Shown piece after piece: positions 5,986 through 19,227 of a stretch of 19,497 bases of DNA. A model generated the notes under the pieces. The model was not told where the DNA came from. It did not search any database and was given only the letters and a program-made list of their open reading frames with translations. The first letter of the stretch is position 1, and the number at the start of each line of letters is the position of its first letter. This DNA comes from a virus: the UHGV virus genome UHGV-0127427, one strand, 5' to 3'. A program made the translations under genes and the position numbers.

Positions 5986-6014
5986 CAAAAAAAAAAGGCG
6001 GCCTAATGGCCGCC
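5986..6014 (-). terminator. intrinsic terminator / attenuator-like hairpin (7-bp GC stem, 4-nt loop) plus U10, 5 nt upstream of the ref ATG
   Basis: Minus-strand sense GGCGGCC-AUUA-GGCCGCC followed by ten U, then GCCAU-AUG(ref). Confidence 0.5.
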
Positions 6015-6081
6015 AATGATGTCAAGGAGTGAAGTAATGGCAACGTCTTCGTAGTTGACAAAAACTGCGGCTCAATTATAG

Positions 6082-6098
6082 CGATATATTAGAGCAAT
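6082..6098 (-). promoter_or_regulatory. C1 operator-like site (Op2-type) overlapping a candidate ref promoter
   Basis: Minus-strand sense ATTGCTCTAATATAT (14/17 to ATTGCTCTAATAAATTT) directly followed by CGC and a perfect TATAAT, about 90 bp upstream of ref. Confidence 0.65.
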
Positions 6099-6204
6099 GA
6101 TAGATATTTTGTTTATCGCTAATCACATTTTTTCACTTCAGTACCTGTGTGCTATACTCCTTCTTGATTGATTGGATGCGGAATACAAACCCGCTCTTTT
6201 GTGC

Positions 6205-6232
6205 AGCCTGGCTCCTTGCCAGGCTTTTTTTT
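6205..6232 (+). terminator. plus-strand intrinsic terminator (AGCCUGGC-UCCUU-GCCAGGCU followed by U8)
   Basis: 8-bp GC-rich stem, 5-nt loop and a run of 8 T on the plus strand; no plus-strand CDS upstream, so it probably ends a short non-coding transcript. Confidence 0.5.
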
Positions 6233-6542
6233 ATTTCATCATGGAAGTTGTTAACGCTTTGGACCTTGCTGAACTGATTGAGAGGGCTTTGTCAACGTGC
6301 CCCAAAAATTCGCCAAACTCAGACATCACTTTAGCAAAACCGCGCCGTGCTTCTTCCTCGGTGGCATTCATCACGAAATGTTCAGCACCACGCATACTTT
6401 TGACAGGGAACGCAACGGATATTGAATCAATATCAGGCATTCTATCGCTCAGCTTTACAGTGACAATGACGGCTGGCGACTGAATATTAGTGCTTACAGA
6501 CAGCACTACATATTTTCCGTCGATGTTGAAATCCTTTCTCAC
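6231..6542 (-). CDS. Cra-like hypothetical protein (cre-associated position); start uncertain (GTG 6542 or ATG 6440)
   Basis: ORF immediately downstream of cre on the same strand with protein-like composition (EEEARRGFAKVMSEFGEFLGHVDKAL); no strong RBS at either start. Confidence 0.4.
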   Translation of the reverse strand: MRKDFNIDGKYVVLSVSTNIQSPAVIVTVKLSDRMPDIDSISVAFPVKSMRGAEHFVMNATEEEARRGFAKVMSEFGEFLGHVDKALSISSARSKALTTSMMK

Positions 6543-6558
6543 ATGTCACCATAAATAT

Positions 6559-6575
6559 CAAAGAATTAGAGCAAT
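6559..6575 (-). promoter_or_regulatory. C1 operator-like site in the cre-cra intergenic region
   Basis: Minus-strand sense ATTGCTCTAATTCTTTG (13/17 to consensus; first 11 positions perfect). Confidence 0.5.
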
Positions 6576-6592
6576 CATTTACGCGTTAATGG

Positions 6593-7624
6593 CTAATCGC
6601 CATCTTCCAGAAGGCGCACCATTGCCCCTGTTTCACTATCCAGGTTACGGATATAGTTCATGACAATATTTACGTTGGTCCAGCCACCAGCTTGCATGAT
6701 CTCCGGTATTGAAACTCCGGCACGGGCCATATCTCGCGCGGCTCCGACACGGGCACTGTGTCCAGACCAGGCCAGGTACCTCTGGCCAGAGTCATCCTTA
6801 GCCCCGTAAATCAATCGGTGAGTTGCTTCAAAAATCCCTTCCAGGGCGCGAGTTGATAGCTGGCTGGTGGGTGATGGCGAGGCAACACCATTTTTTCTGA
6901 CCCGGCAAAACAAGTAGTTATTCGGATCATCAGCCACACCAGAGACAGAAATCCATCGTTCGACCAGTTTAGTTACCCCCAGGCTAAGTGCCTTCTCTAC
7001 ACCCGCGGTACTAACCAGAGTTTTCGTTCTGCCAATATGGATTAGCATTCTCCCACCGTCTGTACGTGAGATATCTTTAACCCTGATCCTGGCAATTTCG
7101 GCTATACGTAACAGGGTGTTATAAGCGATCCCCAGAAATGCCAGATTACGTATATCCTGGCAGCGATCGCTATTTTCCATGAGTGAACGAACCTGGTCGA
7201 AATCAGTGCGTTCGAACGCCAATGCCTGTTTTGCACGTTCACCGGCATCAACGTTTTCTTTTCGAATCCGCCGCATGACCAGTGAAACAGCATTGCTGTC
7301 ACTTGGTCGTGGCAGCCCGGACCGACGATGAAGCATGTTTAGCTGGCCCAAATGTTGCTGGATAGTTTTTACTGCCAGACCGCGCGCCTGAAGATATAGA
7401 AGATAATCGCGAACATCTTCAGGTTCTGCGGGAAACCACTTCCGGTTATTCAACTTGCACCATGCCGCCCACGACCGGCAAACGGACAGAAGCATTTTCC
7501 AGGTATGCTCAGAAAACGCCTGGCGATCCCTGAACATGTCCATCAGGTTCTTGCGAACCTCATCACTCGTTGCATCGACCGGTAATGCAGGCAAATTTTG
7601 GTGTACGGTCAGTAAATTGGACAT
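6593..7624 (-). CDS. cre: Cre site-specific tyrosine recombinase, 343 aa
   Basis: 343-aa ORF starting MSNLLTVHQNLPALPVDATSDEVRKNLMDMFRDRQAFSEHTWKMLLSVCRSWAAWCKLNNRKWFPAEPEDVRDYLLYLQARGLAVKTIQQHLGQLNMLHRRSGLPRPSDSNAVSLVMRRIRKENVDAGERAKQALAFERTDFDQVRSLMENSDRCQDIRNLAFLGIAYNTLLRIAEIARIRVKDISRTDGGRMLIHIGRTKTLVSTAGVEKALSLGVTKLVERWISVSGVADDPNNYLFCRVRKNGVASPSPTSQLSTRALEGIFEATHRLIYGAKDDSGQRYLAWSGHSARVGAARDMARAGVSIPEIMQAGGWTNVNIVMNYIRNLDSETGAMVRLLEDGD, near-identical to P1 Cre as recalled; loxP lies 419 bp upstream. Confidence 0.97.
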   Translation of the reverse strand: MSNLLTVHQNLPALPVDATSDEVRKNLMDMFRDRQAFSEHTWKMLLSVCRSWAAWCKLNNRKWFPAEPEDVRDYLLYLQARGLAVKTIQQHLGQLNMLHRRSGLPRPSDSNAVSLVMRRIRKENVDAGERAKQALAFERTDFDQVRSLMENSDRCQDIRNLAFLGIAYNTLLRIAEIARIRVKDISRTDGGRMLIHIGRTKTLVSTAGVEKALSLGVTKLVERWISVSGVADDPNNYLFCRVRKNGVASPSPTSQLSTRALEGIFEATHRLIYGAKDDSGQRYLAWSGHSARVGAARDMARAGVSIPEIMQAGGWTNVNIVMNYIRNLDSETGAMVRLLEDGD

Positions 7625-7631
7625 TTAACAC

Positions 7632-7853
7632 TCAGACAATAGTTTTAAGTAAAGTGTACAGGATTGGCTCTGCCTTTACCTGTTTATGGTTCTCGTCATA
7701 GAAACGCCAGCGACCGCGCGTGCGTTCTATTTTCTCTTCACCGCGCGATAATGACAGTTGGCAACTATCACGATCAAACCCTTTTGCCCGCCAGTAACCA
7801 CGGTTTTTCTCAAGCTCAAGATGAGTGGACACTTTAGCAGCTGAATATCCCAT
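7632..7853 (-). CDS. hypothetical 73-aa protein immediately upstream of cre
   Basis: ATG 7853 preceded by GAGGTG at 4-nt spacing; stop 7 nt before the cre ATG; basic protein (MGYSAAKVSTHLELEKNRGYWRAKGFDRD...). Not a P1 gene I can name. Confidence 0.4.
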   Translation of the reverse strand: MGYSAAKVSTHLELEKNRGYWRAKGFDRDSCQLSLSRGEEKIERTRGRWRFYDENHKQVKAEPILYTLLKTIV

Positions 7854-7950
7854 TTTTCACCTCTGATTGATTGGTGGTGCTAAGTGCGCTACGCGAAATC
7901 TGGAGCACTAACACTGCCAACATTTCGCAGATTTTACGTAGCGCAACCTT

Positions 7951-8023
7951 GATCAAATGATCAAGTGATCACTATTTGACCTGATAAGGTATTGAACTGT
8001 ATGGATTTACAGGTAAATTGATC
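7951..8023. promoter_or_regulatory. GATC (Dam site) cluster in the cre upstream regulatory region
   Basis: Four GATC within 73 bp (7951-7954, 7959-7962, 7967-7970, 8020-8023) between cre and loxP; consistent with the methylation-sensitive cre promoters described for P1. Confidence 0.55.
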
Positions 8024-8042
8024 ATGTTCAATAACCCTTAAG

Positions 8043-8076
8043 ATAACTTCGTATAATGTATGCTATACGAAGTTAT
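8043..8076 (-). other. loxP: loxP recombination site (34 bp: 13-bp inverted repeats flanking an 8-bp spacer)
   Basis: Exact ATAACTTCGTATA-ATGTATGC-TATACGAAGTTAT; spacer is the reverse complement of GCATACAT, so the site is inverted relative to the plus strand. Confidence 0.97.
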
Positions 8077-8119
8077 CAGGTCCGAAGAGGAGTTTACGTC
8101 CAGCTGCGCACAAAAATCA

Positions 8120-8136
8120 AGAATTATTAGAGCAAT
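8120..8136 (-). promoter_or_regulatory. C1 operator (Op99-type) in immC
   Basis: Minus-strand sense ATTGCTCTAATAATTCT (15/17). Confidence 0.6.
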
Positions 8137-8196
8137 AAATTTTGAGAGAAAAATCCCACTCCACCAGCTAAAAACTGGATTGTTTTTCATAGTTGT

Positions 8197-8223
8197 TTGA
8201 CAATTGCTCTAATAAATTATAGT
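8197..8223 (+). promoter_or_regulatory. Candidate immC promoter with embedded C1 operator (TTGACA - operator - TATAGT)
   Basis: TTGACA 8197-8202, operator ATTGCTCTAATAAATTA 8203-8219 (16/17), TATAGT 8218-8223; upstream of coi-c1 on the same strand. Confidence 0.65.
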
Positions 8224-8457
8224 TTTGCCGCCGTTACGTAATACGACTTTGGATTCACTATTTAATGTGTCTTCAGCGTTGTAGAGCGGCTCAGAAGGAA
8301 ATGAGCAAACAGGGAAACCTTATACAATGGCATTACAGCTATGCATTGCTCATCTTACACACAGCGCAATGTTGTTAGATTACCCCAGCATGGATCATGG
8401 GTGAAACAGTAGGTCAGAGCTTCAGGCTCTGTGTTGTCAATACAGTGAGGCATAATT

Positions 8458-8667
8458 ATGGCTTTCATTCAACCAACCATCGACGACGTTAGACATTGCT
8501 CTAACGCTTTATCTGTAGACCCTGCCGAAACCGACGCTGCCAGCACCATTGCTGAACACTACTCAAAGATATCCAATCAGGACTACCGCATCACCCAAGA
8601 CGACCTGGATGACCTCACTGACACAATCGAATATCTCATGGCAACTAACCAGTTAGCCTCACAATAA
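8458..8667 (+). CDS. coi: Coi, C1 inactivator, 69 aa
   Basis: 69-aa acidic ORF directly upstream of c1 on the same strand (MAFIQPTIDDVRHCSNALSVD...); size and position match P1 Coi; GTGAGG 7 nt upstream of the ATG. Confidence 0.85.
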   Translation: MAFIQPTIDDVRHCSNALSVDPAETDAASTIAEHYSKISNQDYRITQDDLDDLTDTIEYLMATNQLASQ

Positions 8668-8777
8668 ATGCACTAATAAATCTATTATTTTTGTTTGATC
8701 CCTCTATAATATAGGTCAGTAATGACCGGTTTTCTCAACCGGGCGTTATTGACCATGTCAATTCTGGAGGAGGATCA

Positions 8778-9629
8778 ATGATAAATTATGTCTACGGCGA
8801 ACAACTGTACCAGGAGTTCGTCAGCTTCAGGGATCTCTTTCTAAAAAAAGCTGTTGCACGCGCCCAACACGTTGATGCCGCCAGCGACGGTCGTCCTGTT
8901 CGCCCGGTTGTCGTTCTGCCGTTCAAAGAAACGGACAGCATTCAGGCTGAAATTGATAAATGGACTTTAATGGCGCGGGAACTGGAACAGTACCCAGACC
9001 TCAATATCCCAAAGACTATTTTATATCCAGTGCCTAACATCCTTCGCGGTGTACGTAAGGTTACAACTTATCAGACAGAAGCTGTGAACAGCGTCAACAT
9101 GACCGCTGGCCGCATTATTCATCTGATTGATAAGGATATTCGCATCCAAAAAAGCGCGGGGTTCAATGAGCACAGTGCGAAATACATAGAGAACCTGGAA
9201 GCAACAAAAGAGCTAATGAAGCAGTACCCGGAGGATGAAAAATTCCGTATGCGCGTACACGGCTTTAGCGAAACAATGCTGCGCGTCCACTACATTTCCA
9301 GTAGCCCTAACTACAATGATGGTAAATCAGTTAGTTACCATGTGCCACTGTGTGGCGTGTTTATCTGCGATGAAACCCTCCGTGATGGAATCATCATCAA
9401 CGGTGAATTCGAGAAAGCAAAATTTAGCCTTTATGACTCCATAGAACCGATCATCTGCGACCGCTGGCCGCAGGCAAAAATATATCGCCTGGCAGATATT
9501 GAAAATGTAAAAAAACAAATTGCCATCACTCGCGAAGAGAAAAAGGTCAAATCAGCCGCATCAGTTACGCGCAGTCGTAAAACTAAGAAGGGGCAGCCAG
9601 TAAACGACAACCCCGAAAGCGCGCAATAA
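8778..9629 (+). CDS. c1: C1 repressor of lysis, 283 aa
   Basis: 283-aa ORF starting MINYVYGEQLYQEFVSFRDLF behind GGAGGAGG; matches P1 C1 in length and N-terminus as recalled; multiple cognate operators in the window. Confidence 0.95.
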   Translation: MINYVYGEQLYQEFVSFRDLFLKKAVARAQHVDAASDGRPVRPVVVLPFKETDSIQAEIDKWTLMARELEQYPDLNIPKTILYPVPNILRGVRKVTTYQTEAVNSVNMTAGRIIHLIDKDIRIQKSAGFNEHSAKYIENLEATKELMKQYPEDEKFRMRVHGFSETMLRVHYISSSPNYNDGKSVSYHVPLCGVFICDETLRDGIIINGEFEKAKFSLYDSIEPIICDRWPQAKIYRLADIENVKKQIAITREEKKVKSAASVTRSRKTKKGQPVNDNPESAQ

Positions 9630-9632
9630 ATT

Positions 9633-9654
9633 ATGCCCGGCATCAACCGGGCAT
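9633..9654. terminator. hairpin between convergent c1 and the antirepressor-like gene (possible bidirectional terminator)
   Basis: ATGCCCGG-CATCAA-CCGGGCAT, 8-bp stem, 4 nt after the c1 stop; flanks are only moderately T-rich. Confidence 0.45.
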
Positions 9655-9661
9655 TCTTCCA

Positions 9662-10429
9662 TTATTCAGCCGCCACCGGTTTTAACAAGCCAGCATCGAG
9701 CAGTTTACGCGTCAACCACTGTTGTCCTTTCCCCGTTAATTGGGGCGTCAGCCGTATCTGGTAGCCATCTTCATCATCCAGCACCACTTCTTTCACTGTG
9801 AAATATCCGGCGTTTATGTACTGCTGGAACGGCACATTTTTACGCCCGCCGGACGCTATCAGAATGCCGTTCTCCCGTAACCAGGCAAACAGCGCGTTTT
9901 GCTTCAGCCCAACAACCTTTGCAAAATTACCAATCAGGATCCCCTTAGCCACTGATACACGGTCGGCAAAATCGACCTTGGGGGCTGCGGCCACCAGTTG
10001 TTGATTTAGCTGGTGGGCCTTCTGTTCCAGTAGCTGCTTTTGTTCAGCCAGCTCGGCAGCCAGGCGCAAGGCTTCAGGTAGTGTTTGGGGGATTGCGACC
10101 GGTTGCTGTTCTTTTTGCCGGAAGTAGCTGTCTTCCAGTTTTTCAAAGAATGCCCATGCTTCATCTGTGTTTACGATCTTAGACATGCGTGCCGCTCCGC
10201 GTTCGGCCCAAAGAATTACCTGGCTTGTATATTTGCTAACCAGGTGACTAGTAGTCACCAGCCTTTTAAATTCCTTTAATTTTGAACCAGTTAAGAGATA
10301 GTAATGCTTACCTTCTTCAAAGCGATCGGAGTTGCGAGACAAATTTTTACGAATATTAGCTTCATCGGTTCCATAAGCGCAGATAAACATCGCGCTTATC
10401 GACATCCAGATGCGGGTATTCCTTTTCAA
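9662..10429 (-). CDS. phage antirepressor-like protein (ORF6N-type N-terminal region plus KilA-C/ANT-type C-terminal region); start uncertain (TTG 10429 or ATG 10405)
   Basis: N-terminal half AYGTDEANIRKNLSRNSDRFEEGKHYYLLTGSKLKEF...ILWAERGAARMSK and C-terminal half DRVSVAKGILIGNFAKVVGLKQNALFAWLRENGILIASGGRKNVPFQQYINAGYF are typical of phage antirepressors; sits where P1 has pacB/pacA/lpa. Confidence 0.65.
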   Translation of the reverse strand: MKRNTRIWMSISAMFICAYGTDEANIRKNLSRNSDRFEEGKHYYLLTGSKLKEFKRLVTTSHLVSKYTSQVILWAERGAARMSKIVNTDEAWAFFEKLEDSYFRQKEQQPVAIPQTLPEALRLAAELAEQKQLLEQKAHQLNQQLVAAAPKVDFADRVSVAKGILIGNFAKVVGLKQNALFAWLRENGILIASGGRKNVPFQQYINAGYFTVKEVVLDDEDGYQIRLTPQLTGKGQQWLTRKLLDAGLLKPVAAE

Positions 10430-10556
10430 GAATTGCTGCGAGTTCTTTCGCTGATAGAAGAGATTTAGTGCGGATCATGTAATCCGCAATCTCGTACGAT
10501 GTTATTCGTGAGTGATTTATTTCCATGAAGTGGCGTCCCTGCCAGTTAAGTAACAT
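10362..10556 (-). CDS. hypothetical 64-aa protein overlapping the 5' end of the antirepressor-like gene in another frame
   Basis: ATG 10556 preceded by AGGTGA at 4-nt spacing; ends within the first codons of the antirepressor ORF; could be a real leader gene or the product of a frameshift. Confidence 0.35.
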   Translation of the reverse strand: MLLNWQGRHFMEINHSRITSYEIADYMIRTKSLLSAKELAAILEKEYPHLDVDKRDVYLRLWNR

Positions 10557-10626
10557 CCTGTCACCTACTGATTAGCCCATGTCAACTAATCAACGTCGAA
10601 TATAATACCCTCGATTAAAGAAATAG

Positions 10627-10643
10627 CAATACATTAGAGCAAT
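10627..10643 (-). promoter_or_regulatory. C1 operator-like site upstream of the 64-aa/antirepressor unit
   Basis: Minus-strand sense ATTGCTCTAATGTATTG (14/17) beginning 1 nt after the pdcB-like stop; TTGCTA-16 bp-TATTAT promoter-like hexamers overlap it. Confidence 0.55.
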
Positions 10644-10644
10644 T

Positions 10645-11691
10645 TTATCTAACGCTCGACGAATGACTTGTGATAGCGCCGACTCCAAGCGCGTAATCAA
10701 AGAACAATCGTTGATGCATCGCCAGCCTACCGTGCGTCTTCTCCCAATTATCGCGGTCACGCTCAATATCACGCTGGCATGACTGGCACAGAGGAATAGC
10801 ATAAATGTCATGCGCGCATAATCGACTATAACGAACGATATAAGGCGTAATGTGAGCGCCAGCTCCCGCCGCTCCACACCCACAGCATGGACGGGAAGCA
10901 ACAAAGTCCATGTACTCAGGTAATTTTAGCGATTGCAGTTTTGGTATTTTGAAATGCGCCATACCTGGGTCGGAGTCAACATCCACAGGGCATACTTTTG
11001 CACGCATCGGCGCGGCGCGTTCTTCCATCATCTGAACATATGCTGTAGCGCGATCGTCATACGGGCGAATATCCGCCTCTTTCAGTGGTCCGCTATCCTG
11101 CGGAGTAGCCTTCATCTTATTTATTATTGATATGCGGCAGACTTCTTCCGGCATCAGGTGCATCATGTTGCGCATGAAAGCCCACCAGCACAGCTCCTGA
11201 ATACTTAAATCATGGCTATTTGAAAGGCCCATTTCCTGACGGGCGACATCCAGTATCCAGTTAACGCGATTATTGTGCAGCGTTTCTTTCAGCTCATTAA
11301 AACCACGCATCCGGTAATGGTTATCGTGATGCCAGCACAACAACACCGCGCTATTGTCTCGTTCAGCGTGGACAATATGGTTGTCACACCAACTACGATC
11401 TGCGGCCTGGCATTGACCCTCTTTCCTACGCAACCACGCCACCAGCGCGTCAATTCCACCAATACGGCGAAACAGTTCATCGCTGTTAAAAAACGGCTGC
11501 AACGCCTCATTTGTTGCCATGGTTTGCTCGGTAACAACGAGGCCGTCTTCCATGTGCTCGATTAACTCACGCGGCACCGGCTCCATAATAAATTTACGGC
11601 CAGCCTCCACCAGCTTTCTGACCTCCTGATCCACTTTGAACGTGGCGAGGCCAAGCTCTTTCTGTACAAAGGGAGTAATTACGGCTTTCAC
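10645..11691 (-). CDS. pdcB: PdcB-like protein (post-doc gene B position), 348 aa, GTG start, Cys-rich C-terminal region
   Basis: GTG 11691 preceded by AAGGTG at 4 nt; C-terminal CCGCG...C..C..C..C cluster suggests metal binding; assignment by position downstream of doc. Confidence 0.5.
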
Positions 11692-11718
11692 ATCACACCT
11701 TTAATCACTGATTGGGCT

Positions 11719-11898
11719 TTATCTGCTGCCCGACATTATCTGTTTAAGCACAACCATTTCCTGACGGCATAACACAGCAATAGCGGTCCTGGCACCAATT
11801 TGCTTACTAACCAGGTATTGCTTTATCTTGCGGCGACTCACGCCATCAAGAAGCATCTTTAACGCTTCACGGGACAATTTGTTGTATTTGCGTGCCAT
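11719..11898 (-). CDS. pdcA: PdcA-like small protein, 59 aa from ATG 11898
   Basis: ATG 11898 lies 4 nt after the doc stop; the track start at 11919 would overlap doc. Positional assignment. Confidence 0.45.
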   Translation of the reverse strand: MARKYNKLSREALKMLLDGVSRRKIKQYLVSKQIGARTAIAVLCRQEMVVLKQIMSGSR

Positions 11899-11902
11899 TA
11901 AT

Positions 11903-12283
11903 CTACTCCGCAGAACCATACAATCTACGTAACGTGGCGGCGACAGAAGATACAGATATCTCGCCAGTCGCAGCGCCTACAGTAAGGTCTGCCAGTTCAG
12001 GTGAATCAAATACCTGCACCCCGTTACGGCGTAGAAATAGCAGCGCACTGTTTAGCGCGGTACGCTTATTGGCATCATTGAATATATGCCCTCTCGCTGT
12101 AGCCACCAGGTAGGTGGCGGAGACTTCGAAAAGGTCGGTGATCTCTTCGTAGGCAACTCTGGCCTGAACTCTCCCGATAATGGCCTCTGCCCTACCCGGA
12201 TCTGACATTCCCGGCAGGCCGCCGTAGCGGTTTATATTCGCATCATGAAGCGCAATAAGTTCTTCCGGTGATATATGCCTCAT
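11903..12283 (-). CDS. doc: Doc toxin (Fic-fold kinase) of the phd-doc addiction module, 126 aa
   Basis: 126-aa [50 protein letters not shown]...; start overlaps the phd stop by 1 nt (TAATG), as in P1. Confidence 0.95.
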
Positions 12284-12504
12284 TATCGGTTAACCAGTTC
12301 CTTGTTGGTGGAGTCCAGGGTGTCAAACAGGGATGCAAATTCAGCATCCAGCGCCGCTTTTTTGTAGGCTTCGAAAGTAGCCTTGCTGACAATTACTGCT
12401 GGCTCACGGCCTCTGCGGGTGATTTCAACCTCTTCCCCGGCTTCAACATTGTTGAGCACTTCAGAAAGGTTGCCGCGCGCGGTACGGAAGTTAATGGATT
12501 GCAT
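12283..12504 (-). CDS. phd: Phd antitoxin, 73 aa
   Basis: [73 protein letters not shown] from ATG 12504 (two codons inside the track's start); matches P1 Phd. Confidence 0.95.
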
Positions 12505-12684
12505 AAACACCTCGTGTACTCGTTATGTGTACACAATTATAAACTTCACAGGCATAAAGCACCAGCACTTTGCAGCTTAAATCACCGGACAATCATCAAA
12601 TTCCCCACTTCGGGCATCATTAATGACATGAGTGATCACACCAAACACAGCATTACTCCCCGTGCATCCATCGTCATCCACTGG

Positions 12685-12966
12685 TCACGCCTCTTTCTTC
12701 CCGGTGCTTAAATCCTCCAGGTGCTGGCGCGGATACTTTCGGTATCTCTTTATGCGATATTCACCCTCCATAGCGCACACAAGCAGCGAACCATCAACTG
12801 GAGTAAGCGAAGAATCAACCACCAGCAAAGCACCCTGCAATATTCCCTCACGGTGATGGCTATCAGCTGCCCGCATGAAGTAGGTTGCTGATGGATGTCT
12901 AATTATCTGCTGATCAAGAGAAATTCGGCTTTCAACATAATCCGCCGCAGGAGAAGGGAAACCCAT
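12685..12966 (-). CDS. humD: HumD, UmuD'-like translesion synthesis accessory protein, 93 aa
   Basis: ORF upstream of phd-doc on the same strand with a UmuD'-like C-terminal region; GAGGT before the ATG; LexA box 19 bp upstream. Confidence 0.8.
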   Translation of the reverse strand: MGFPSPAADYVESRISLDQQIIRHPSATYFMRAADSHHREGILQGALLVVDSSLTPVDGSLLVCAMEGEYRIKRYRKYPRQHLEDLSTGKKEA

Positions 12967-12984
12967 AGCGTTTTACCTCAAAAA

Positions 12985-13004
12985 TACTGTTTATCTATAC
13001 AGCA
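12985..13004. promoter_or_regulatory. LexA box (SOS operator) upstream of humD
   Basis: TACTGTTTATCTATACAGCA, i.e. CTGT-N8-ACAG with AT-rich core. Confidence 0.7.
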
Positions 13005-13140
13005 TACATTAAAGAAGCACCTTTGGTGCAAACGCGTTATGTACATCAACCACCGCTGATGATTTTTGTGCGCTTTGCTACTATTCATCACCGCGGGATC
13101 AGCGTAACCTCGTTGCCAATCAGTTAATAAGGAATTAGCT

Positions 13141-13725
13141 ATGCCTAATCGCATTCCTCTCGATCCTGTATTGCCCAAAAATTTTGACTGCACTCCTAAC
13201 GAGAAACGCTCTAAAGCTCAGCTGGACGCCTAGTGGGACCATCCATATGGGGTTACACAACCTGACGGGAAAATTGTAGTTTATTGTCTGAATGGTGGGG
13301 CGTGGGACCGTCCATCCGTGCTTTGTTTGGCAGATAACTATGATGAAGCCTGTGAACTTGCCGAAAGACAGCAGGCAAGCTGGGTAAAAACACGGTCTGA
13401 ACCGACATTCATGTTTTCAAAAGAACCGCCATTTATACTGGCGAGGATGCCGCAGCGACCGGATCATCAACAAGAAATTGTTGCTGAATTTTCCTCAAGG
13501 GATGAGATGAATCTCTTCTCATTAAAGCAGGAAGAAAGGGATCGCGTCGAAGTGTCTCCAACTCTCGACCACAACCGGATGAACCTGGCCCAGCTCGCCT
13601 GGTACAGCAAAGAATTAGAGATGTCTATTGCCCGGCTTGAAAACGAAAAAGCCGCTATCCAAGTCCAGCACGAAGTAGTTCTGAACCGGATTAGAGAAAT
13701 GCAAAACGATAACAGGGGATTTTGA
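13141..13725 (+). pseudogene. hypothetical gene interrupted by an in-frame amber codon (30 codons, TAG at 13231-13233, then 164 more codons in the same frame)
   Basis: ATG 13141 has a good RBS (AAGGA, 8-nt spacing). The frame has a single TAG and continues open to 13725; the only in-frame restart (GTG 13318) lacks an RBS. Confidence 0.45.
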
Positions 13726-14082
13726 ATGGCTAAAATCGAGTACCATCGCGATCGCGGTAATTACCTGGAAATATACGATCATGAATCTCTTAACGATATC
13801 AACGATGCGTTATATGAATACTGTGAAAAAACGAGCATCACAGATGCACCTGATGCATTTGTCGAGCTGCCGGTATATCTCCGCGACATCTATGCAATAC
13901 GAACACCGCCCGTATCGGTGATTCACATTGGCTATGTCCGCCTGTCCATCGAAGAAGATGAAGATCGTTATATCGTGCGCCACTATACATTGGACAGAAA
14001 AGAACTTCCTAATGAATGGAACATGAGTAATTTCTACAACGGTGAATATGGCTTAAAATCCGCTAATAATTTACGGTCATAA
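13726..14082 (+). CDS. hypothetical protein, 118 aa
   Basis: ATG overlaps the upstream stop (TGAATG) with AGGGGA 9 nt upstream; acidic protein, no recognised motif. Confidence 0.5.
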   Translation: MAKIEYHRDRGNYLEIYDHESLNDINDALYEYCEKTSITDAPDAFVELPVYLRDIYAIRTPPVSVIHIGYVRLSIEEDEDRYIVRHYTLDRKELPNEWNMSNFYNGEYGLKSANNLRS

Positions 14083-14618
14083 TCTATACAGGCATGTATA
14101 ACAACAACGAGCCTATTAGCTGTCAACAACGTTATTTCCTCAAATAAGAAAAAGCAGAAAACAAATTGTTTAAGGTCACAAATTGTGGCCTTGATGGAGG
14201 AGGGAGGCTTATTGGCTATGGCTAAAAATCAAATTAGACACTTCATGTTGCTGTAGCTCATCAAGATCCGAGGCCACAAAACCTTTTCCGAAAAACTTCA
14301 CAAGTAACTCACTAGCCGCATCATTGTCACCTATTACACGAAAGTCATACGGCAACGTCGCAAGTTGACGATGTAATCCTGCTGAGAAAGTCGAATCTAA
14401 CAGCGCCCAGAATTCCCACCGCAGGATAATACTCGCCTCTTAATACTGTATATATGTTGTTACGATATGTTTTTCTGTCTCTAAAAAAAGATGTTTGAAG
14501 GGGATAAAAATATACAATTCCAACAAACGTTATTTTTAACAATTTTTTTCTTTGCGTTGACTTTCCCGGACACCTTGTCTGACCGAAGGTGCGCGAAAGC
14601 CACTTTTTCCTTCCTGAG

Positions 14619-14639
14619 TTATCCACAAAGTTATGCACT
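14619..14639 (+). promoter_or_regulatory. two tandem DnaA-box-like 9-mers
   Basis: TTATCCACA (14619-14627, perfect consensus) and TTATGCACT (14631-14639, 8/9) in direct orientation, 3 bp apart, inside an AT-rich non-coding stretch. Confidence 0.4.
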
Positions 14640-14927
14640 TGCAAGAGGGCCATTTTCTACATATTGTGGTGGCTAACAGATGAAATGAATGTAGATTAAT
14701 TGAAGATAAGGAGAAAATTTGAGATGCAATCATGACGTTAATAGATAGGGTCTGCATTACAGACCCCACCCGCATCAAGGAATTAGCCGTTCCCTGATGT
14801 TTTTCCGAAAACATGTGCCGTAAGCTCACGTTAACGACTTTCATTCACCGAATCCAACTATATAGGGGTTGGGTTTCTACGTCAACGTGAGCAAGTGCAC
14901 CTTTACATTTGACAAGGAACCACCTGA

Positions 14928-15065
14928 ATGAACGCTTTTTTTCAGTTCCTGAGTGCATTTTTAGATGCGCCTATTATTAGCCAGATTCTGGCTATTATCC
15001 TCATCATCGTTTTGATTTTGCTTTTAAGGTCAGTAAAAAATGGAATTATGCACTGGCTTACTTAA
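14928..15065 (+). CDS. small hydrophobic peptide, 45 aa (single predicted transmembrane helix)
   Basis: MNAFFQFLSAFLDAPIISQILAIILIIVLILLLRSVKNGIMHWLT; AAGGAA 8 nt upstream of the ATG; a perfect 9-bp inverted repeat overlaps the stop codon. Confidence 0.3.
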   Translation: MNAFFQFLSAFLDAPIISQILAIILIIVLILLLRSVKNGIMHWLT

Positions 15066-15140
15066 TGTTTCAGTGAAACATTAAAATCTCCTTGATGTGG
15101 AAACAATCATTTTCTGTATGTGCTGGTGGGCACCTGTAGT

Positions 15141-15503
15141 TCAGCTTTCGTTGGCATTTAACTTCGTCTTTGCTTTCTCCACCAGCAACTTCCAGATGCC
15201 TATTTCATTAGCAGCCGCCTTGATGGCGGCATAAAAAGCATCTTGCTGATCGTAACGCTGGATCTGTTTTTTCAGTTTTGCCTCCACCAATTTAATTTCA
15301 TTACGTGCTTTCTGAAGCCGCATCACCGCCCGGTTACGTCTGTTCTTGTATAGCGTGTTAATCTCTGACAATTGCTTTAATTTACCAGCCTGACTGCGGA
15401 TTATCGCCTCCCTGGCTTCTGCCGTGCGTCTCATCTGATCTCTTAAGAGTTCACCGTTTTCGATAATTCTTTCAAGGTGTTTGATGTGATCTGCAACTCT
15501 CAT
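15141..15503 (-). CDS. hypothetical coiled-coil protein, 120 aa
   Basis: ORF whose start overlaps the upstream gene's stop (ATGA); heptad-rich, charged sequence. Confidence 0.5.
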   Translation of the reverse strand: MRVADHIKHLERIIENGELLRDQMRRTAEAREAIIRSQAGKLKQLSEINTLYKNRRNRAVMRLQKARNEIKLVEAKLKKQIQRYDQQDAFYAAIKAAANEIGIWKLLVEKAKTKLNANES

Positions 15504-16381
15504 ACTTCACCCTCGCTTGTATCACCAGCGTCCACCAACGACAATAAAGCCCTGGCCATCTTATGAACCAACAGTGCATCAATAATGCCAAGCGTATGCC
15601 CCGGCTTAATGTTTAATGCTGCCTCAAGATGACACCTTTCCAGACCGCTTTTCTCGGCTTGTTTATGATGATATGGCGTAATAACGTCGCCCAAAACACG
15701 GCTAATTCTTTCTCGTAATTGCTGGGTGCCAGCACACTTGATCGCTGTATCGTGGAGACGGTTAACCAGTTCGCGATAAACATGCGGCTTAATGCGGATA
15801 CGTTCACCGGTGACGCCCTTTCCTGGCGTAGGCACCGAACTATCCGGAATATCCGGATAGTTGCCAGCCAGTCTACGCAAAACAGCCTTAATTGCATCAA
15901 TACGGTCATCATCAACTTTTTCTACAATATTGGAATTTAAATACTTCGAAGCCTTGCTATGCCAATCGCTGGTTTTAGGGTCTTGTCCATCCATCAAACG
16001 CCAAGCTTCAGCGATTAACTCATAGCCAGTAACAGTGGCTTCCTGCGCATCACCAATCAGTTGTGTGATCTCTCTTTCAAGCATGCTTAGAGCGTTAGGC
16101 ATTGGTTTTTCTTCCGGTACTACTGGAACGGGGGGAGCGGCGTAGACCTCAATAATTCCATTATCAATAGGCCATTCTCCATCCTTGAGGTAGTCACTTG
16201 TGCCGTCAACTTGCTGTTCTGCAATGTGGAATGCACCTATTGGTTTTGCTTCCAGTGATGCCAGAGCAATTCGTGCCAGTTCTTCCGCTTCTTCTGCTGG
16301 CAGTACAACGTTGCTACCAGGTCCGTATGTTTCGCGCCACTGCTTGATTGTCAGTAGTCGCTCTTTGGTAATAGTGGTCAT
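15500..16381 (-). CDS. hypothetical protein, 293 aa
   Basis: ATG 16381 preceded by AGGAAA at 7 nt; no motif recognised. Confidence 0.55.
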   Translation of the reverse strand: MTTITKERLLTIKQWRETYGPGSNVVLPAEEAEELARIALASLEAKPIGAFHIAEQQVDGTSDYLKDGEWPIDNGIIEVYAAPPVPVVPEEKPMPNALSMLEREITQLIGDAQEATVTGYELIAEAWRLMDGQDPKTSDWHSKASKYLNSNIVEKVDDDRIDAIKAVLRRLAGNYPDIPDSSVPTPGKGVTGERIRIKPHVYRELVNRLHDTAIKCAGTQQLRERISRVLGDVITPYHHKQAEKSGLERCHLEAALNIKPGHTLGIIDALLVHKMARALLSLVDAGDTSEGEV

Positions 16382-16465
16382 GCCGCGTTTCCTTCTTTCT
16401 TATTAACAATTACACCGTCATATATTTCATTAAGGTGGCGAACAACAAGAAACTGATTTCCGACT

Positions 16466-16603
16466 TCACGGACTTCGTTGCTTTCCAGTTCTGCTATCCA
16501 TAAAAATGAAATGGACGCTAACGCCAGCTTTTCGCTGTGCTTCCATCAGATGAACGAGATAAGCCGATGTTCGTCCACCTGAAAAGCTGACGACTTGATG
16601 CAT
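16466..16603 (-). pseudogene. 5' remnant of a PP-loop (PAPS-reductase-like) gene, 45 codons then stop
   Basis: Encodes MHQVVSFSGGRTSAYLVHLM... carrying the SGGxxS PP-loop signature, but terminates after 45 codons; the remainder of such a ~250-aa domain is absent. Confidence 0.4.
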
Positions 16604-16612
16604 ACTCACGGT

Positions 16613-17191
16613 TTATTCCTGAATGCGCTTAAACTCGATTACCCATACCAACGGGTTAGATAGCCAGTTATCCTGCCCGTAAATACTGCGCCAGATATCA
16701 CCAAAACCAACGCGATAAACAGCTTCAGATGGCGTAATCTTGTACGTCGCCGGAGTTGCGCCTTCTGCTTTAGCATCTTCCTCGCTCATGTCATGCAGCC
16801 GTTCCACACGCACGTCGGTAATTTCCAAAAGAATGCGCGATGCCCAGCGCGGCATGTGAATTGATGGCGTCCACTTTTCTGATACTGGTTTATTACAAAC
16901 CTCGACCGGAACCCGGTGCGTTTGTTCTGTCCAGGAGTTACGCACGCTTGCGCGATAAACCAGCGTTGCGACGTCCGTCGCTTTGCCATGTACCCGGTAG
17001 GTTTCGCGAACCCAAATACGATCGCCCGGTTGACCATATGGACAATGCTTGGCAAGCAACTCTGCGGCCACTGCCCGTCCATAGAATTTTTCTTCAACAA
17101 TCCTGCGAGTCTGTGTTTTATTCCCGCCAAGAATTGCCCGGACCATCTCATCGTTAAAAATCATGCCGCGCTCTTTCACTTCGCCTTTCAT
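16613..17191 (-). CDS. hypothetical protein with ASCH/PUA-like N-terminal motif, 192 aa
   Basis: N-terminal MIFNDEMVRAILGGNKTQTRRI resembles the ASCH-domain GxKxxExR signature; AGGGGGA precedes the ATG at 17191. Confidence 0.45.
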   Translation of the reverse strand: MKGEVKERGMIFNDEMVRAILGGNKTQTRRIVEEKFYGRAVAAELLAKHCPYGQPGDRIWVRETYRVHGKATDVATLVYRASVRNSWTEQTHRVPVEVCNKPVSEKWTPSIHMPRWASRILLEITDVRVERLHDMSEEDAKAEGATPATYKITPSEAVYRVGFGDIWRSIYGQDNWLSNPLVWVIEFKRIQE

Positions 17192-17200
17192 GCATCCCCC

Positions 17201-17287
17201 TTACCCATGTGCGACGATGCCGCCAAAAGTGATAGAGAACAGCCAGAAATAGATCGCGGCCATAATGATTTTGAATGCCGTGTTCAT
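17201..17287 (-). CDS. small hydrophobic peptide, 28 aa, translationally coupled to the downstream ASCH-like gene
   Basis: MNTAFKIIMAAIYFWLFSITFGGIVAHG; CAGGAG 8 nt upstream of the ATG; its stop overlaps the RBS of the next gene. Confidence 0.3.
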   Translation of the reverse strand: MNTAFKIIMAAIYFWLFSITFGGIVAHG

Positions 17288-17315
17288 ATTTTCAGCTCCT
17301 GTGATTGATTGGATA

Positions 17316-17346
17316 CATGCCGCGCCTTGCGGCATGTTTTTATTTT
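17316..17346 (+). terminator. plus-strand terminator-like hairpin (CAUGCCGC-GCCUU-GCGGCAUG followed by UUUUUAUUUU)
   Basis: 8-bp stem, 5-nt loop, T-rich tail on the plus strand, 4 nt after the GATTGATTGG motif; both flanking genes are on the minus strand. Confidence 0.4.
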
Positions 17347-17369
17347 CACTTTCTCTGTTTTAAAAATCA

Positions 17370-17386
17370 TTATTTATTAGAGCAAT
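17370..17386 (-). promoter_or_regulatory. C1 operator-like site upstream of the small-peptide/ASCH unit
   Basis: Minus-strand sense ATTGCTCTAATAAATAA (15/17), overlapping the stop of the HAD-like gene. Confidence 0.6.
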
Positions 17387-17892
17387 TATTGTTGATGGAG
17401 AAGCGCGTTTTCATACTCCCTGACCATTAACGTAAGCACGCCGTGCCTCCTGAAAACACGCGCCACTTCAATCTTATCTTCCAGCGCGAACGCAATTTTG
17501 CTTAGACCAATTTTCTTAAGGAGATCAATCTTTGCTGGACCGTCATTTCTGTCATCGGTGGCGGGACGCATAGATAGCAAAGGCTCTGCCCCATTTGTTA
17601 CGTGCTTACGCAACCAGGCTCGTGTTTTATCCCTGGCTATCTCACAGCGCCCGGTTACAAACCAGAGCGTGTAAATGCTGGACAACTGGCGCACCATATC
17701 AATAACTGGAGTGATGGAAGCATCAGTGTCACAGGCAAGGTTAAACTCGTTCCAGTGCTCTGTTAATGCACCGTTGCCAGGCGGTGGAAGTAAATGCAGC
17801 CTGTCTTCCGTTGCCTCCGATATCGTTCCATCAATATCTACTATGACAATGTACGGACGTTCCTGGTGTGCGTGTTTATTGAAAATACTCAA
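17386..17892 (-). CDS. HAD-superfamily phosphatase-like protein, 168 aa, TTG start
   Basis: HAD motif I DxDGT in IVIVDIDGTISEA; TTG start preceded by GAGGAGG at 4 nt; no ATG alternative nearby. Confidence 0.55.
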   Translation of the reverse strand: MSIFNKHAHQERPYIVIVDIDGTISEATEDRLHLLPPPGNGALTEHWNEFNLACDTDASITPVIDMVRQLSSIYTLWFVTGRCEIARDKTRAWLRKHVTNGAEPLLSMRPATDDRNDGPAKIDLLKKIGLSKIAFALEDKIEVARVFRRHGVLTLMVREYENALLHQQ

Positions 17893-17911
17893 ATGCCCTC
17901 CTCATTGGACG

Positions 17912-17942
17912 AAAAAAATGCTGGTGGGCGCACTCCACCAGC
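17912..17942 (-). terminator. intrinsic terminator downstream of the 420-aa gene
   Basis: Minus-strand sense GCUGGUGG-AGUGCGC-CCACCAGC followed by AUUUUUUU. Confidence 0.5.
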
Positions 17943-17964
17943 ATTAAAAGTGACACTGTAACTA

Positions 17965-19227
17965 TCAGCGAACGTAAATAGTGCCGCCGTTCACTTTTTC
18001 CCATGCATCGCTAAGTGCATAGCAAACATCAAGAAGTCTTCTTGCCGCTGTTTCCTCTAAACCCAATTCGACAACCAACTGCTCATGACGGCGGGTAACC
18101 ACATCAAACAGGGTATGCAGCCCTTTAGCTGCCAGATCATCAATAAATTCCGGTTCGAACGGCAGCTCTGCATCTGCCAACATAACCTCTTGCGCCCACT
18201 CAACTCGACGGACCAGTTCCGGGCGGCGGCTTTCCATCTCTTTACAGATCAATTCATGGAAGAACTCTACCCAACCTTCCGGCTGGAACTCGCGGAAAAT
18301 TGCCAACGGCTGGAAGTTTGGCATCAACCATTCGTTGATTCGGATATCAATGGCATAGCCCATGTCGCAGCAGAACTGATAAGCAAAGTCCAGCTTAGAA
18401 ACGATATAAGGACGCTCGTTATTGAACTCTTTAGGCGATGAGATCCCATAAGCCAGGAGGCGCGGGAAGAATGAGATTTGCCCTAACGTCGGATGGAGTT
18501 TGCTTGCAGGAAAACGGCGCTCAGTAATGCCATACATTTCCTTCTTGAGCGTCGCAAATTTAGCATTTTCATTAACCAGCGCGGTAACCTCTGCTTTTTT
18601 ATTAGCAAATGCCACGCGCGCTTCGCTTGCATCTTTAATAGTTTTTTTGAGCTGTTGGTTAAGATCGGCGACCTGCTTACGCAGTTCCTGTCGCTCGCTT
18701 TTAGCTTTGTTATAGCGTTTCTCAAGGTTAAAAGGATCAAGTTTCATGATCTCTTTATATTGAGATTTTAGCGTTGAAATCTGTGAGTTCCGCAGTTCAA
18801 CCATCGCGGTCATTTCATTGAGTTTTGTTTCCAGCTCAATGCTTATACGTTCGGCATTATCAGCACGCTGGTTGGCGTCATGCGTCGCATCGTCGATCGC
18901 GTCCTGTTGCTGGCGTTTCAAATGTTCAATTTGCAGCTGAAGCTCTTCAATTTCTTTACCCTTCAGACCGAGATCCAACTGCATATTTTCAGCTGCATCT
19001 ACCAGGGAGTTATGGCTATCAGCTTCTGCGTTATAAACATCAATAAGCTGTGCGTGAAGCATCTCCGCTGACTGAACCGCATTATCAAAAAAACGCGCTG
19101 TGAGGTCATCACAACTAACGCGGCGTTGCGCGGCCCGGATGTTCTGGATAATGGCCGGGATACCGGCATTCAGGACGTCAGGGATAGATACATTTTCGAT
19201 TGATTGGTTTTGTGCTGAAGTGCTCAT
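17965..19227 (-). CDS. hypothetical protein, 420 aa, long central coiled coil plus globular C-terminal region
   Basis: ATG 19227 lies 1 nt after the upstream 72-aa ORF stop; central ~200 aa are heptad-rich (E/K/Q/L); no catalytic motif recognised. Confidence 0.55.
   Translation of the reverse strand: MSTSAQNQSIENVSIPDVLNAGIPAIIQNIRAAQRRVSCDDLTARFFDNAVQSAEMLHAQLIDVYNAEADSHNSLVDAAENMQLDLGLKGKEIEELQLQIEHLKRQQQDAIDDATHDANQRADNAERISIELETKLNEMTAMVELRNSQISTLKSQYKEIMKLDPFNLEKRYNKAKSERQELRKQVADLNQQLKKTIKDASEARVAFANKKAEVTALVNENAKFATLKKEMYGITERRFPASKLHPTLGQISFFPRLLAYGISSPKEFNNERPYIVSKLDFAYQFCCDMGYAIDIRINEWLMPNFQPLAIFREFQPEGWVEFFHELICKEMESRRPELVRRVEWAQEVMLADAELPFEPEFIDDLAAKGLHTLFDVVTRRHEQLVVELGLEETAARRLLDVCYALSDAWEKVNGGTIYVR

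Follow-up and report, generated by a model that had tools for sequence, protein, structure and literature searches.

A recurrent 10-mer of P1-like phage-plasmids as the probable seed and docking sites of a small regulatory RNA

Why should one 10-nucleotide word recur across a stretch of phage DNA, each time on the same strand? The question is raised by UHGV virus genome UHGV-0127427, a stretch of 19,497 nucleotides (nt) that was analysed as a whole and is referred to here as the window. It represents a P1-like phage-plasmid in reverse orientation relative to the P1 reference and carries ref, c8, cre, cra, loxP and c1 and, further along, pmgT-like, pap, pmgS and pmgR genes. P1, from which Cre-lox derives, is one of the most thoroughly studied temperate phages. 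The word, GATTGATTGG, is found in four exact copies on the plus strand, at 6166, 7865, 17303 and 19198 (sites 1 to 4). The comparative data indicate that one of these copies, at site 1, is probably the 5' end of a previously undescribed regulatory RNA of the P1 family, and that the remaining copies probably serve it as complementary docking sites where several phage genes begin. The complete model, in which 6166-6233 (plus strand) is a small RNA (sRNA) and the other copies are its target sites, is the account that we favour, with moderate confidence. It builds directly on four observations, namely the statistics of the motif, its conservation at orthologous sites, a conserved gene-like architecture at site 1 and covariation between the sRNA and its targets.

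A strand-confined word kept at orthologous sites

The four copies had been reported in an earlier note on this DNA as exceeding chance, and this is borne out: 0.07 copies are expected in the window, and none of 200 dinucleotide shuffles gave four. The minus strand of the window holds no copy, and a search of the window that allowed one mismatch returned nothing beyond the four exact copies. Because the window is reversed relative to P1, the sense strand of the local genes shows all four as CCAAUCAAUC. When the repeated 10-mers of the window are ranked without bias, the motif comes next after the C1-operator core and Chi-containing words and is the only one of these top-ranked words that is confined to a single strand; the ranking thereby sets it apart from the C1-operator and Chi words. 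A comparison with known P1 DNA signals (C1 operator, Lpa late promoter, Chi, lox, parS, iterons and Dam clusters) gave no match or annotation, and the curated P1 record has no annotated feature at any of the four orthologous motif positions.

Within the P1 clade (about 96-97% identity), the motif is kept at site 1 in 98 of 105 loci and at site 2 in 83 of 85, a conservation that by itself cannot discriminate, since the flanks are equally conserved. More diverged relatives are informative. Specifically, Cronobacter phage JK004, which was picked by protein similarity and not by the motif (amino-acid identity of 69% for PmgS and 55% for Cra), carries six exact copies in its 93.8 kb, where 0.23 are expected; the sense strand holds all six and the opposite strand none. 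The Salmonella plasmid pCFSAN058588 carries four exact copies and one C-to-U variant, again all on the sense strand, with 0.22 expected. In both, the 10-mer sits at orthologous places despite diverged flanks: ahead of the first gene past lox, downstream of the c8-like gene, within pmgS codons 7-10, and ahead of the small hydrophobic open reading frame (ORF) downstream of pap. Extra copies stand before a small gene after lxc in both lineages and right against the ref ATG in JK004, and the 10-mer is not present elsewhere in either genome. Across the three genomes, all 13 trans copies lie between -26 and +30 of a start codon. Since the 10-mer is kept at orthologous sites while the surrounding nucleotides have diverged, these comparisons indicate that it is itself under selection, and that this selection is tied to the mRNA strand and to translation-initiation regions. 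Neither outcome that the earlier note had named as speaking against the motif, absence from orthologous positions in related phages or a similar density in coding regions, was thus found.

Three further sources of comparison proved of little use. IncF-plasmid copies of the 28-amino-acid (28-aa) ORF at site 3 were considered as an independent context and set aside as uninformative, being IS1-cut remnants that end just before the motif. A Cre search of species-representative genomes returned just two near-identical loci, and Klebsiella phage pJN2-26, which has a Cra homologue, was rejected as a relative, as it is not P1-like and has no motif. P1-like lineages at a greater distance, from Pantoea, Citrobacter and Vibrio, show PmgS identities of about 20-24%.

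P1 itself carries the same four copies as the window plus a fifth, on the opposite strand and downstream of the gp5 operon, which P7 shares. This fifth CCAATCAATC copy is located at P1 25780 (minus strand; stretch L004) and P7 nt 75900 (minus strand), about 185 nt past the gp5 stop and antisense to the 3' end of dbn/glt, and it is absent from JK004 and the Salmonella plasmid. It may be a 3'-untranslated-region site or a chance occurrence.

A candidate sRNA gene between c8 and ref

At site 1, the motif lies within a predicted gene for a trans-acting sRNA of 67-68 nt (6166-6233, plus strand; from fold, covariance model and alignment), which is placed antisense between c8 and ref, its 3' end reaching over the stop codon of c8. 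In P1, it corresponds to the complementary strand of nt ~1894 to 1828. The predicted promoter (6130-6158, plus strand; promoter scan) comprises a -35-like TTTTCA (6130-6135), a 17-nt spacer and an extended -10 element, TG-c-TATACT, with its hexamer at 6153-6158. The motif begins 8 nt past the last -10 base, the distance expected for a transcription start, and this copy (6166-6175, plus strand) would form the 5'-terminal seed, GAUUGAUUGG, with transcription predicted to begin at G6166 or T6165. All of 65 distinct P1-clade sequences have TG-n-TATACT unchanged, and exactly 7 nt separate it from the motif in the P1, JK004 and Salmonella clades, while the 7 nt themselves differ by clade (CCTTCTT, CATTCGC and CATCCGC). 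Together, the P1-clade promoter and the -10 spacing shared by three clades provide the own promoter expected of a trans-encoded base-pairing sRNA. The seed is invariant across all clades and, as it never varies, no covariation test is possible inside the 10-mer.

In its predicted fold, the RNA has an unpaired 5' end, GAUUGAUU, followed by a small hairpin, a linker rich in U and a terminator (minimum free energy -23.2 kcal/mol, z = -3.4, within a range of -3.0 to -3.5). Hairpin 1 (GGA.GCGG / CCGC UCU; 6174-6197, plus strand) takes in the last two seed bases, and opening nt 1-8 of the seed costs 0.5-1.4 kcal/mol. The intrinsic terminator (6205-6233, plus strand; terminator scan) consists of a stem-loop at 6205-6225 and a U8 tail, so that the RNA would also end as trans-encoded base-pairing sRNAs do. 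The scans of JK004 and the Salmonella plasmid call it on this strand as well, its stem contains a U-A to C-G compensatory pair, and in two clades it has a G.U pair for which the opposite strand would have A.C. Furthermore, in three of four representatives the folding energy is 3-6.5 kcal/mol more favourable for the sRNA strand than for its sense-strand counterpart.

The same architecture recurs in the relatives. Scanning IMG/VR for TATACT-N7-GATTGATTGG recovered three clades of true homologues (P1-like, JK004-like and Salmonella-like) among chance matches, and in a scan that used only the non-P1 terminator and so did not select for the seed, every locus returned carries the seed. Common to all clades is a layout of TG-n-TATACT, 7 unrelated nt, the seed, a clade-specific hairpin, xGUGCA, the terminator and a U-run, with terminator stems of GCCUGGC/GCCAGGC or GCCCGGC/GCUGGGC. 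A covariance model built from 15 sequences gives exactly one strong match per genome (59-94 bits) and no paralogue in those genomes. In the alignment guided by this model, 95.4% of cells are paired, against 32-57% in slid controls, and both-sided changes are seen in 6 of 15 pairs (five in hairpin 1 and one in the terminator), a result matched by none of 500 shuffles. Five of the seven hairpin-1 pairs show a compensatory change in this alignment, and the hairpin-1 sequence is clade-specific. The model-guided alignment superseded a sequence-only MAFFT alignment, on which RNAalifold had recovered the terminator only, because hairpin 1 was mis-registered.

This architecture also bears on how site 1 should be read on the sense strand. 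The earlier note had described a unit of hairpin, motif and Shine-Dalgarno sequence at three of the copies; it stands at site 3 and, more loosely, at site 2, and fails at site 1. There, a search of the sense strand found no ORF after AGAAGGAG, the proposed Shine-Dalgarno sequence, which is not conserved either, as JK004 and the Salmonella plasmid have GCGAATGA or GCGGATGA in its place; by these comparisons, AGAAGGAG is not a Shine-Dalgarno sequence at this site. Read on the sense strand, the site-1 hairpin has its A-run on the 5' side, which identifies it as an intrinsic terminator of the plus strand.

Two other elements lie close by. The sense strand next to site 1 (6060-6110, minus strand) holds GAAGTGAAAAAATGTGA, which resembles the cra ribosome-binding region GAGGTGAAAAATGGGA (7840-7860, minus strand); it encodes a start-stop only and may be the relic of a duplicated leader. 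In the ref leader, a strong sense-strand terminator, GGCGGCC-ATTA-GGCCGCC followed by T10, is located at 5997-6014 (minus strand), a short distance before the ATG of ref (5981). This element has no relation to the motif and is presumably the attenuator proposed for ref in the literature of the 1980s.

Predicted targets, pairing and competing explanations

The remaining copies in the window sit at the starts of three genes. Site 2 (7865-7874, minus strand) is a predicted target in the cra-cre leader, at -21 to -12 from the ATG of cra (73 aa; 7632-7853, minus strand), the first gene of the cra-cre unit; 11 nt, including the adjoining Shine-Dalgarno sequence GAGGTG, separate motif and ATG. The site is downstream of the annotated P1 promoter P3cre, in the leader made from it, and the 10-mer persists at the orthologous place, ahead of the first gene past lox, in both JK004 and the Salmonella plasmid. 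Between loxP and this motif, a long inverted repeat, GCGCTACG...CGTAGCGC, occupies 7885-7945 (minus strand), with the annotated P3cre -10 within its 5' arm; it is found in JK004 as well (stretch ~7850-7920, minus strand), with a different inner sequence (CTACGTGAATT/AATTCACGTAG).

Site 3 (17303-17312, minus strand) is a predicted target in the leader of the 28-aa hydrophobic ORF (MNTAFKIIMAAIYFWLFSITFGGIVAHG; 17201-17287, minus strand), at -25 to -16, with 15 nt, including the adjoining Shine-Dalgarno sequence CAGGAG, between motif and ATG. The ORF is flanked by pap and the pmgT-like gene; 9 nt separate its stop from the ATG of the latter, and it is not annotated in the P1 reference. The site has orthologs in both JK004 and the Salmonella plasmid, where the homologous ORFs encode 53 and 46 aa, respectively, and share an N-terminal hydrophobic segment; the sequences thus point to a conserved small membrane peptide. 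The body of this ORF (17197-17280) is also found, about 99% identical, downstream of a plasmid hsdR gene in IncF plasmid NZ_CP021690 (1501-1600 of stretch L005) and in about 280 other non-P1 plasmids, which indicates that the small-ORF segment has moved between P1-like elements and IncF plasmids; an IS1 end interrupts these copies just after the start.

On the 5' side, a leader hairpin (17315-17337, minus strand) adjoins the site-3 motif and has been kept by compensatory base changes in three clades. At the gene following lxc, as at site 3, the motif has a hairpin 2-8 nt ahead of it, with stems of CAUGCCGC/GCGGCAUG, GGCCGC/GCGGCC, GGCCAC/GUGGCC and GGCCGC/GCGGUC, the last with a G.U pair on the sense strand. 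A -10-like hexamer is located about 7 nt upstream of the hairpin and coincides, at site 3, with the annotated P1pmgT -10, so that the hairpin is probably at the 5' end of the C1-controlled pmgT-operon mRNA. The mRNAs of site 3 and of the gene after lxc would accordingly begin with a 5' stem-loop; the motif and the Shine-Dalgarno sequence would then make up nearly all of the single-stranded leader, and pairing would cover the region where the ribosome lands. In the relatives, the site-3 hairpin behaves as a leader hairpin of the sense strand. In the P1 clade only, it also scans as a plus-strand terminator, a reading that we regard as incidental or at most lineage-specific, given that the T-run is missing in JK004 and the Salmonella plasmid. 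A second sRNA copy at site 3 was rejected as well, since there is no promoter, the T-run is unconserved and the covariance model finds no match.

Site 4 (19198-19207, minus strand) is a predicted target inside pmgS (420 aa, a PmgS-like head morphogenesis protein; 17965-19227, minus strand), where it occupies bases +21 to +30 and thereby, as the earlier note had it, codons 7-10. Three clades retain these codons (A[A/G]C CAA TCA ATC) amid diverging neighbours.

By its sequence, the sRNA seed is the exact complement of the mRNA motif, and the resulting 10-bp duplex has a predicted energy of -12.2 kcal/mol. Opening the target would cost 0.1 kcal/mol at site 3, 0.7 at site 4 and 4.1 at site 2. An accessible seed that matches initiation sites on several mRNAs is, again, what a trans-encoded base-pairing sRNA would be expected to have. 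Full-length RNAduplex runs gave over-extended duplexes of no meaning and were not used, and a bipartite pairing of the linker UUUUGUGC with GCACAAAA 5' of the pmgS site, which is partly kept elsewhere and confounded by protein conservation, was not relied on.

The main argument for direct RNA-RNA pairing, as opposed to a site for a protein, is intermolecular covariation just outside the 10-mer. In JK004, the RNA continues ...GG-CUU, and C11 faces a G at -1 of the motif in all five trans sites; two or three more pairs would form in three of the five, and G.U pairs in a fourth. Even the coding region follows this pattern, as codon 7 of JK004 pmgS is AGC (Ser) where AAC (Asn) stands elsewhere, supplying the matching G. 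Complementarity upstream of the predicted +1 is found in none of the five, so that the boundary of pairing coincides with the predicted 5' end of the RNA. The Salmonella RNA continues ...GG-UUU, and its targets have an A at -1 in four of four cases, extended to AAA in two. The P1-clade RNA continues ...GG-AUG. At site 3 (UAU), nt 11 (A) pairs, and the complementarity reaches about 15 bp if G.U pairs are counted; the remaining two P1-clade sites carry an A at -1. Pairing in the P1 clade is thus 10-11 bp. Covariation between regulator and target is thus seen at nt 11 in JK004 (5/5) and Salmonella (4/4), and in one of three cases in the P1 clade.

The earlier note had proposed a shared cis-regulatory element with four possible uses: a site for an RNA-binding protein, a processing site, the target of a trans-acting antisense RNA, or a DNA site for a phage regulator. 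Of these, the antisense-RNA target is favoured by the covariation at nt 11 and by the candidate RNA gene at site 1; the copies are not equivalent, however, with site 1 appearing as the regulator. Several points weigh against the sRNA model all the same. In the JK004 and Salmonella clades, the promoter scan detected no -35, so that transcription there would depend on the extended -10, an element known to suffice in E. coli. The compensatory-pair counts derive from an alignment fitted to the structure, and hairpin 1 alone is no stabler than shuffles (z = -0.6 to -1.2). In the P1 clade, nt 11 pairs only at one target of three. The pmgS site, at +21 to +30, falls outside the region where pairing usually blocks initiation directly, and the fifth copy of P1 and P7 is not close to a start codon. 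Finally, an A stands directly 3' of the motif (CCAATCAATC-A) in 12 of 13 targets, for example at window positions 7864 and 17302. It cannot pair in two clades, where the sRNA gene has a C at -1, and hints at an additional constraint.

This trailing A, which sRNA pairing leaves unexplained, is also one of the features that speak for the strongest competing explanation, a cis element in the mRNA that is read by a protein or by the ribosome, be it a G-free unstructured enhancer or standby site, a translational-repressor site or an endoribonuclease site, with the site-1 RNA absent, irrelevant or sequestering. Each target copy is on the mRNA strand beside a ribosome-binding site, a conserved hairpin stands ahead of the motif at two target classes, and in JK004 the motif abuts the ref ATG, which has no Shine-Dalgarno sequence, and takes its place. 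Complementarity to 16S rRNA is, however, at chance level (longest Watson-Crick run 6 nt; 5-7 nt in 96 of 100 shuffles), on which ground a 16S-complementary enhancer of the epsilon or downstream-box type was rejected, and generic enhancers need no invariant 10-mer. Nor would a cis element explain why site 1 has a promoter, seed and terminator, or why the base 5' of the motif tracks nt 11 of the sRNA between clades. We therefore consider this explanation rather unlikely as a replacement for the sRNA model, with which it is compatible and may coexist.

Improbable, in our estimate, is an explanation that accepts the site-1 RNA as real and restricts it to a cis-antisense role against c8-ref read-through, leaving the other copies unrelated or relics of a duplicated leader module. 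The sRNA is indeed fully complementary to any sense transcript that crosses the c8-ref spacer, and common descent is suggested by the GAG[G/C]TGAAAA(T)ATG that follows the motif at sites 2 and 3 and by the terminator-like sequence shared by sites 1 and 3. Yet common descent does not account for the survival of the 10-mer alone, amid diverged flanks, in JK004 and Salmonella, for the clade-specific match at nt 11 or for retention within a coding region.

A DNA site for a phage or host DNA-binding protein, such as a regulator, recombination or replication site, is highly improbable. The rank of the motif beside C1 operators and Chi would fit it, as would the position of several copies in regulatory regions near C1 operators; against it stand the strict polarity relative to transcription in three genomes, the location of the copies past the promoters, within leaders and pmgS codons 7-10, rather than in -35/-10 regions, the lack of a palindrome and of any annotation here in the curated P1 record, and the covariation at nt 11, for which a DNA site offers no explanation. 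Least credible of all is a type I toxin-antitoxin-like pair at site 3, formed by the 28-aa peptide and its own cis-antisense RNA (motif plus terminator 17315-17337, plus strand), for although the small hydrophobic ORF is conserved and a plus-strand terminator directly follows the motif in the P1 clade, no plus-strand promoter was found at site 3, the T-run is absent in JK004 and the Salmonella plasmid, the covariance model returns no paralogue there, the ORF stands 9 nt before the next gene in the manner of an operon leader, and the related module has a hairpin G.U pair in the sense orientation.

The sRNA model among known RNAs and in P1 gene control

The candidate sRNA has no match among known families: a search of the window with 4227 Rfam models, including phage antisense RNAs, C4 among them, and enterobacterial sRNAs, returned nothing at gathering thresholds, and a permissive search gave only sub-threshold, terminator-driven hits (SorX, 22.6 versus 46.6 bits; Hrs12, 22 versus 70; GcvB, 20.3 versus 42). 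No mention of the RNA sequence, or of the motif in a P1 context, was found in the literature covered, to which Łobocka et al. 2004 did not belong, so that an old passing mention is possible.

In architecture, the candidate matches sRNAs of the RybB and OmrA/B type, which likewise have a single-stranded conserved 5' end from +1, an internal hairpin, a U-rich stretch and a terminator with U-tail. RNAs of this type use multiple 10-13 bp target sites around start codons, including early coding sequence. The candidate differs from them in being phage-encoded and aimed, as far as seen, at the phage's own mRNAs, and has no sequence or Rfam relation to them.

A 2025 review of phage sRNAs names C4 as the only RNA for P1 and P7 (PMC12197685). 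Encoded in immI, C4 is likewise a small RNA of the same phage family that acts by short pairing at or near a ribosome-binding site (a2, b2 before icd-ant), and it represses translation as one layer of lysogeny control (PMC12197685). In contrast to the candidate, C4 is excised from the operon transcript that it regulates, has no promoter-terminator gene of its own and finds its targets in that operon, whereas the candidate would be a free-standing gene, more than 40 kb distant, whose sites are spread over at least three separate operons. C4 was also considered as the partner of the motif, or the locus as a C4-type immunity RNA, and rejected: C4 and its targets TTTGACAG and GTTAGTGAG have no complementarity to the motif, and the locus has its own terminator. 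Other temperate-phage small RNAs that act by base-pairing include DicF, IsrK, AsxR/AgvB, P4 CI RNA, P22 sar and lambda OOP (PMC12197685). Most of these target mRNAs or sRNAs of the host, or else one adjacent phage transcript; the candidate, by comparison, would address dispersed phage initiation regions with one seed, and is conserved in three diverged P1-like lineages.

The data are best explained by a mechanism in which a single-copy sRNA is transcribed from the extended -10 promoter, antisense in the c8-ref spacer, and ends at the intrinsic terminator. Its unpaired 5' seed GAUUGAUUGG would pair with CCAAUCAAUC in phage mRNAs (the leaders of cra and of the 28-aa ORF at the head of the pmgT operon, and codons 7-10 of pmgS), and this pairing would lower translation, mRNA stability or both by occluding ribosome binding, promoting decay or both. 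Synthesis of the RNA, its pairing in vivo and repression as the outcome are inferred here; activation by the sRNA is possible. The result would be a coordinate damping of leaky or early expression in several mostly C1-repressor-controlled early or accessory operons. Most of the targets indeed belong to C1-controlled operons, namely pmgR-pmgS via Op86, the pmgT operon via Op88, ref (in JK004) and the cra-cre unit. The C1 operator Oref, in turn, is located 30-45 bp upstream of the sRNA -35 and does not overlap the promoter, so that the RNA is probably made in lysogens. As it is fully antisense to c8-to-ref read-through, a cis role may exist as well.

A bolder extension, which we hold to be clearly unlikely and offer as speculation, would make this RNA a second P1 immunity-type riboregulator, constitutively made beside immC-lox-cre-c8 and backing C1 repression post-transcriptionally in several operons, with the classical c8 phenotype mapping at least in part to the RNA gene. 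The c8 lysogeny-establishment phenotype has been assigned only putatively to the adjacent 103-aa ORF, the stop codon of which is overlapped by the candidate RNA gene.

The Salmonella P1-like plasmid encodes a protein of the ProQ/FinO family (NZ_CP077703 nt 84602-85132), a class of RNA chaperones, which is a possible partner of plasmid or phage small RNAs.

If correct, the model would add a post-transcriptional layer to the control of P1 genes, in which one seed has conserved sites on the cra-cre leader, pmgS and the pmgT-operon leader and, in relatives, on ref. It would also provide testable handles on cra, c8 and the small membrane peptide. The site in the cra-cre leader implies that native expression of the Cre region may be RNA-regulated. 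Since many P1-like phage-plasmids carry resistance genes in Enterobacteriaceae, such a layer of control may be of relevance beyond P1 itself.

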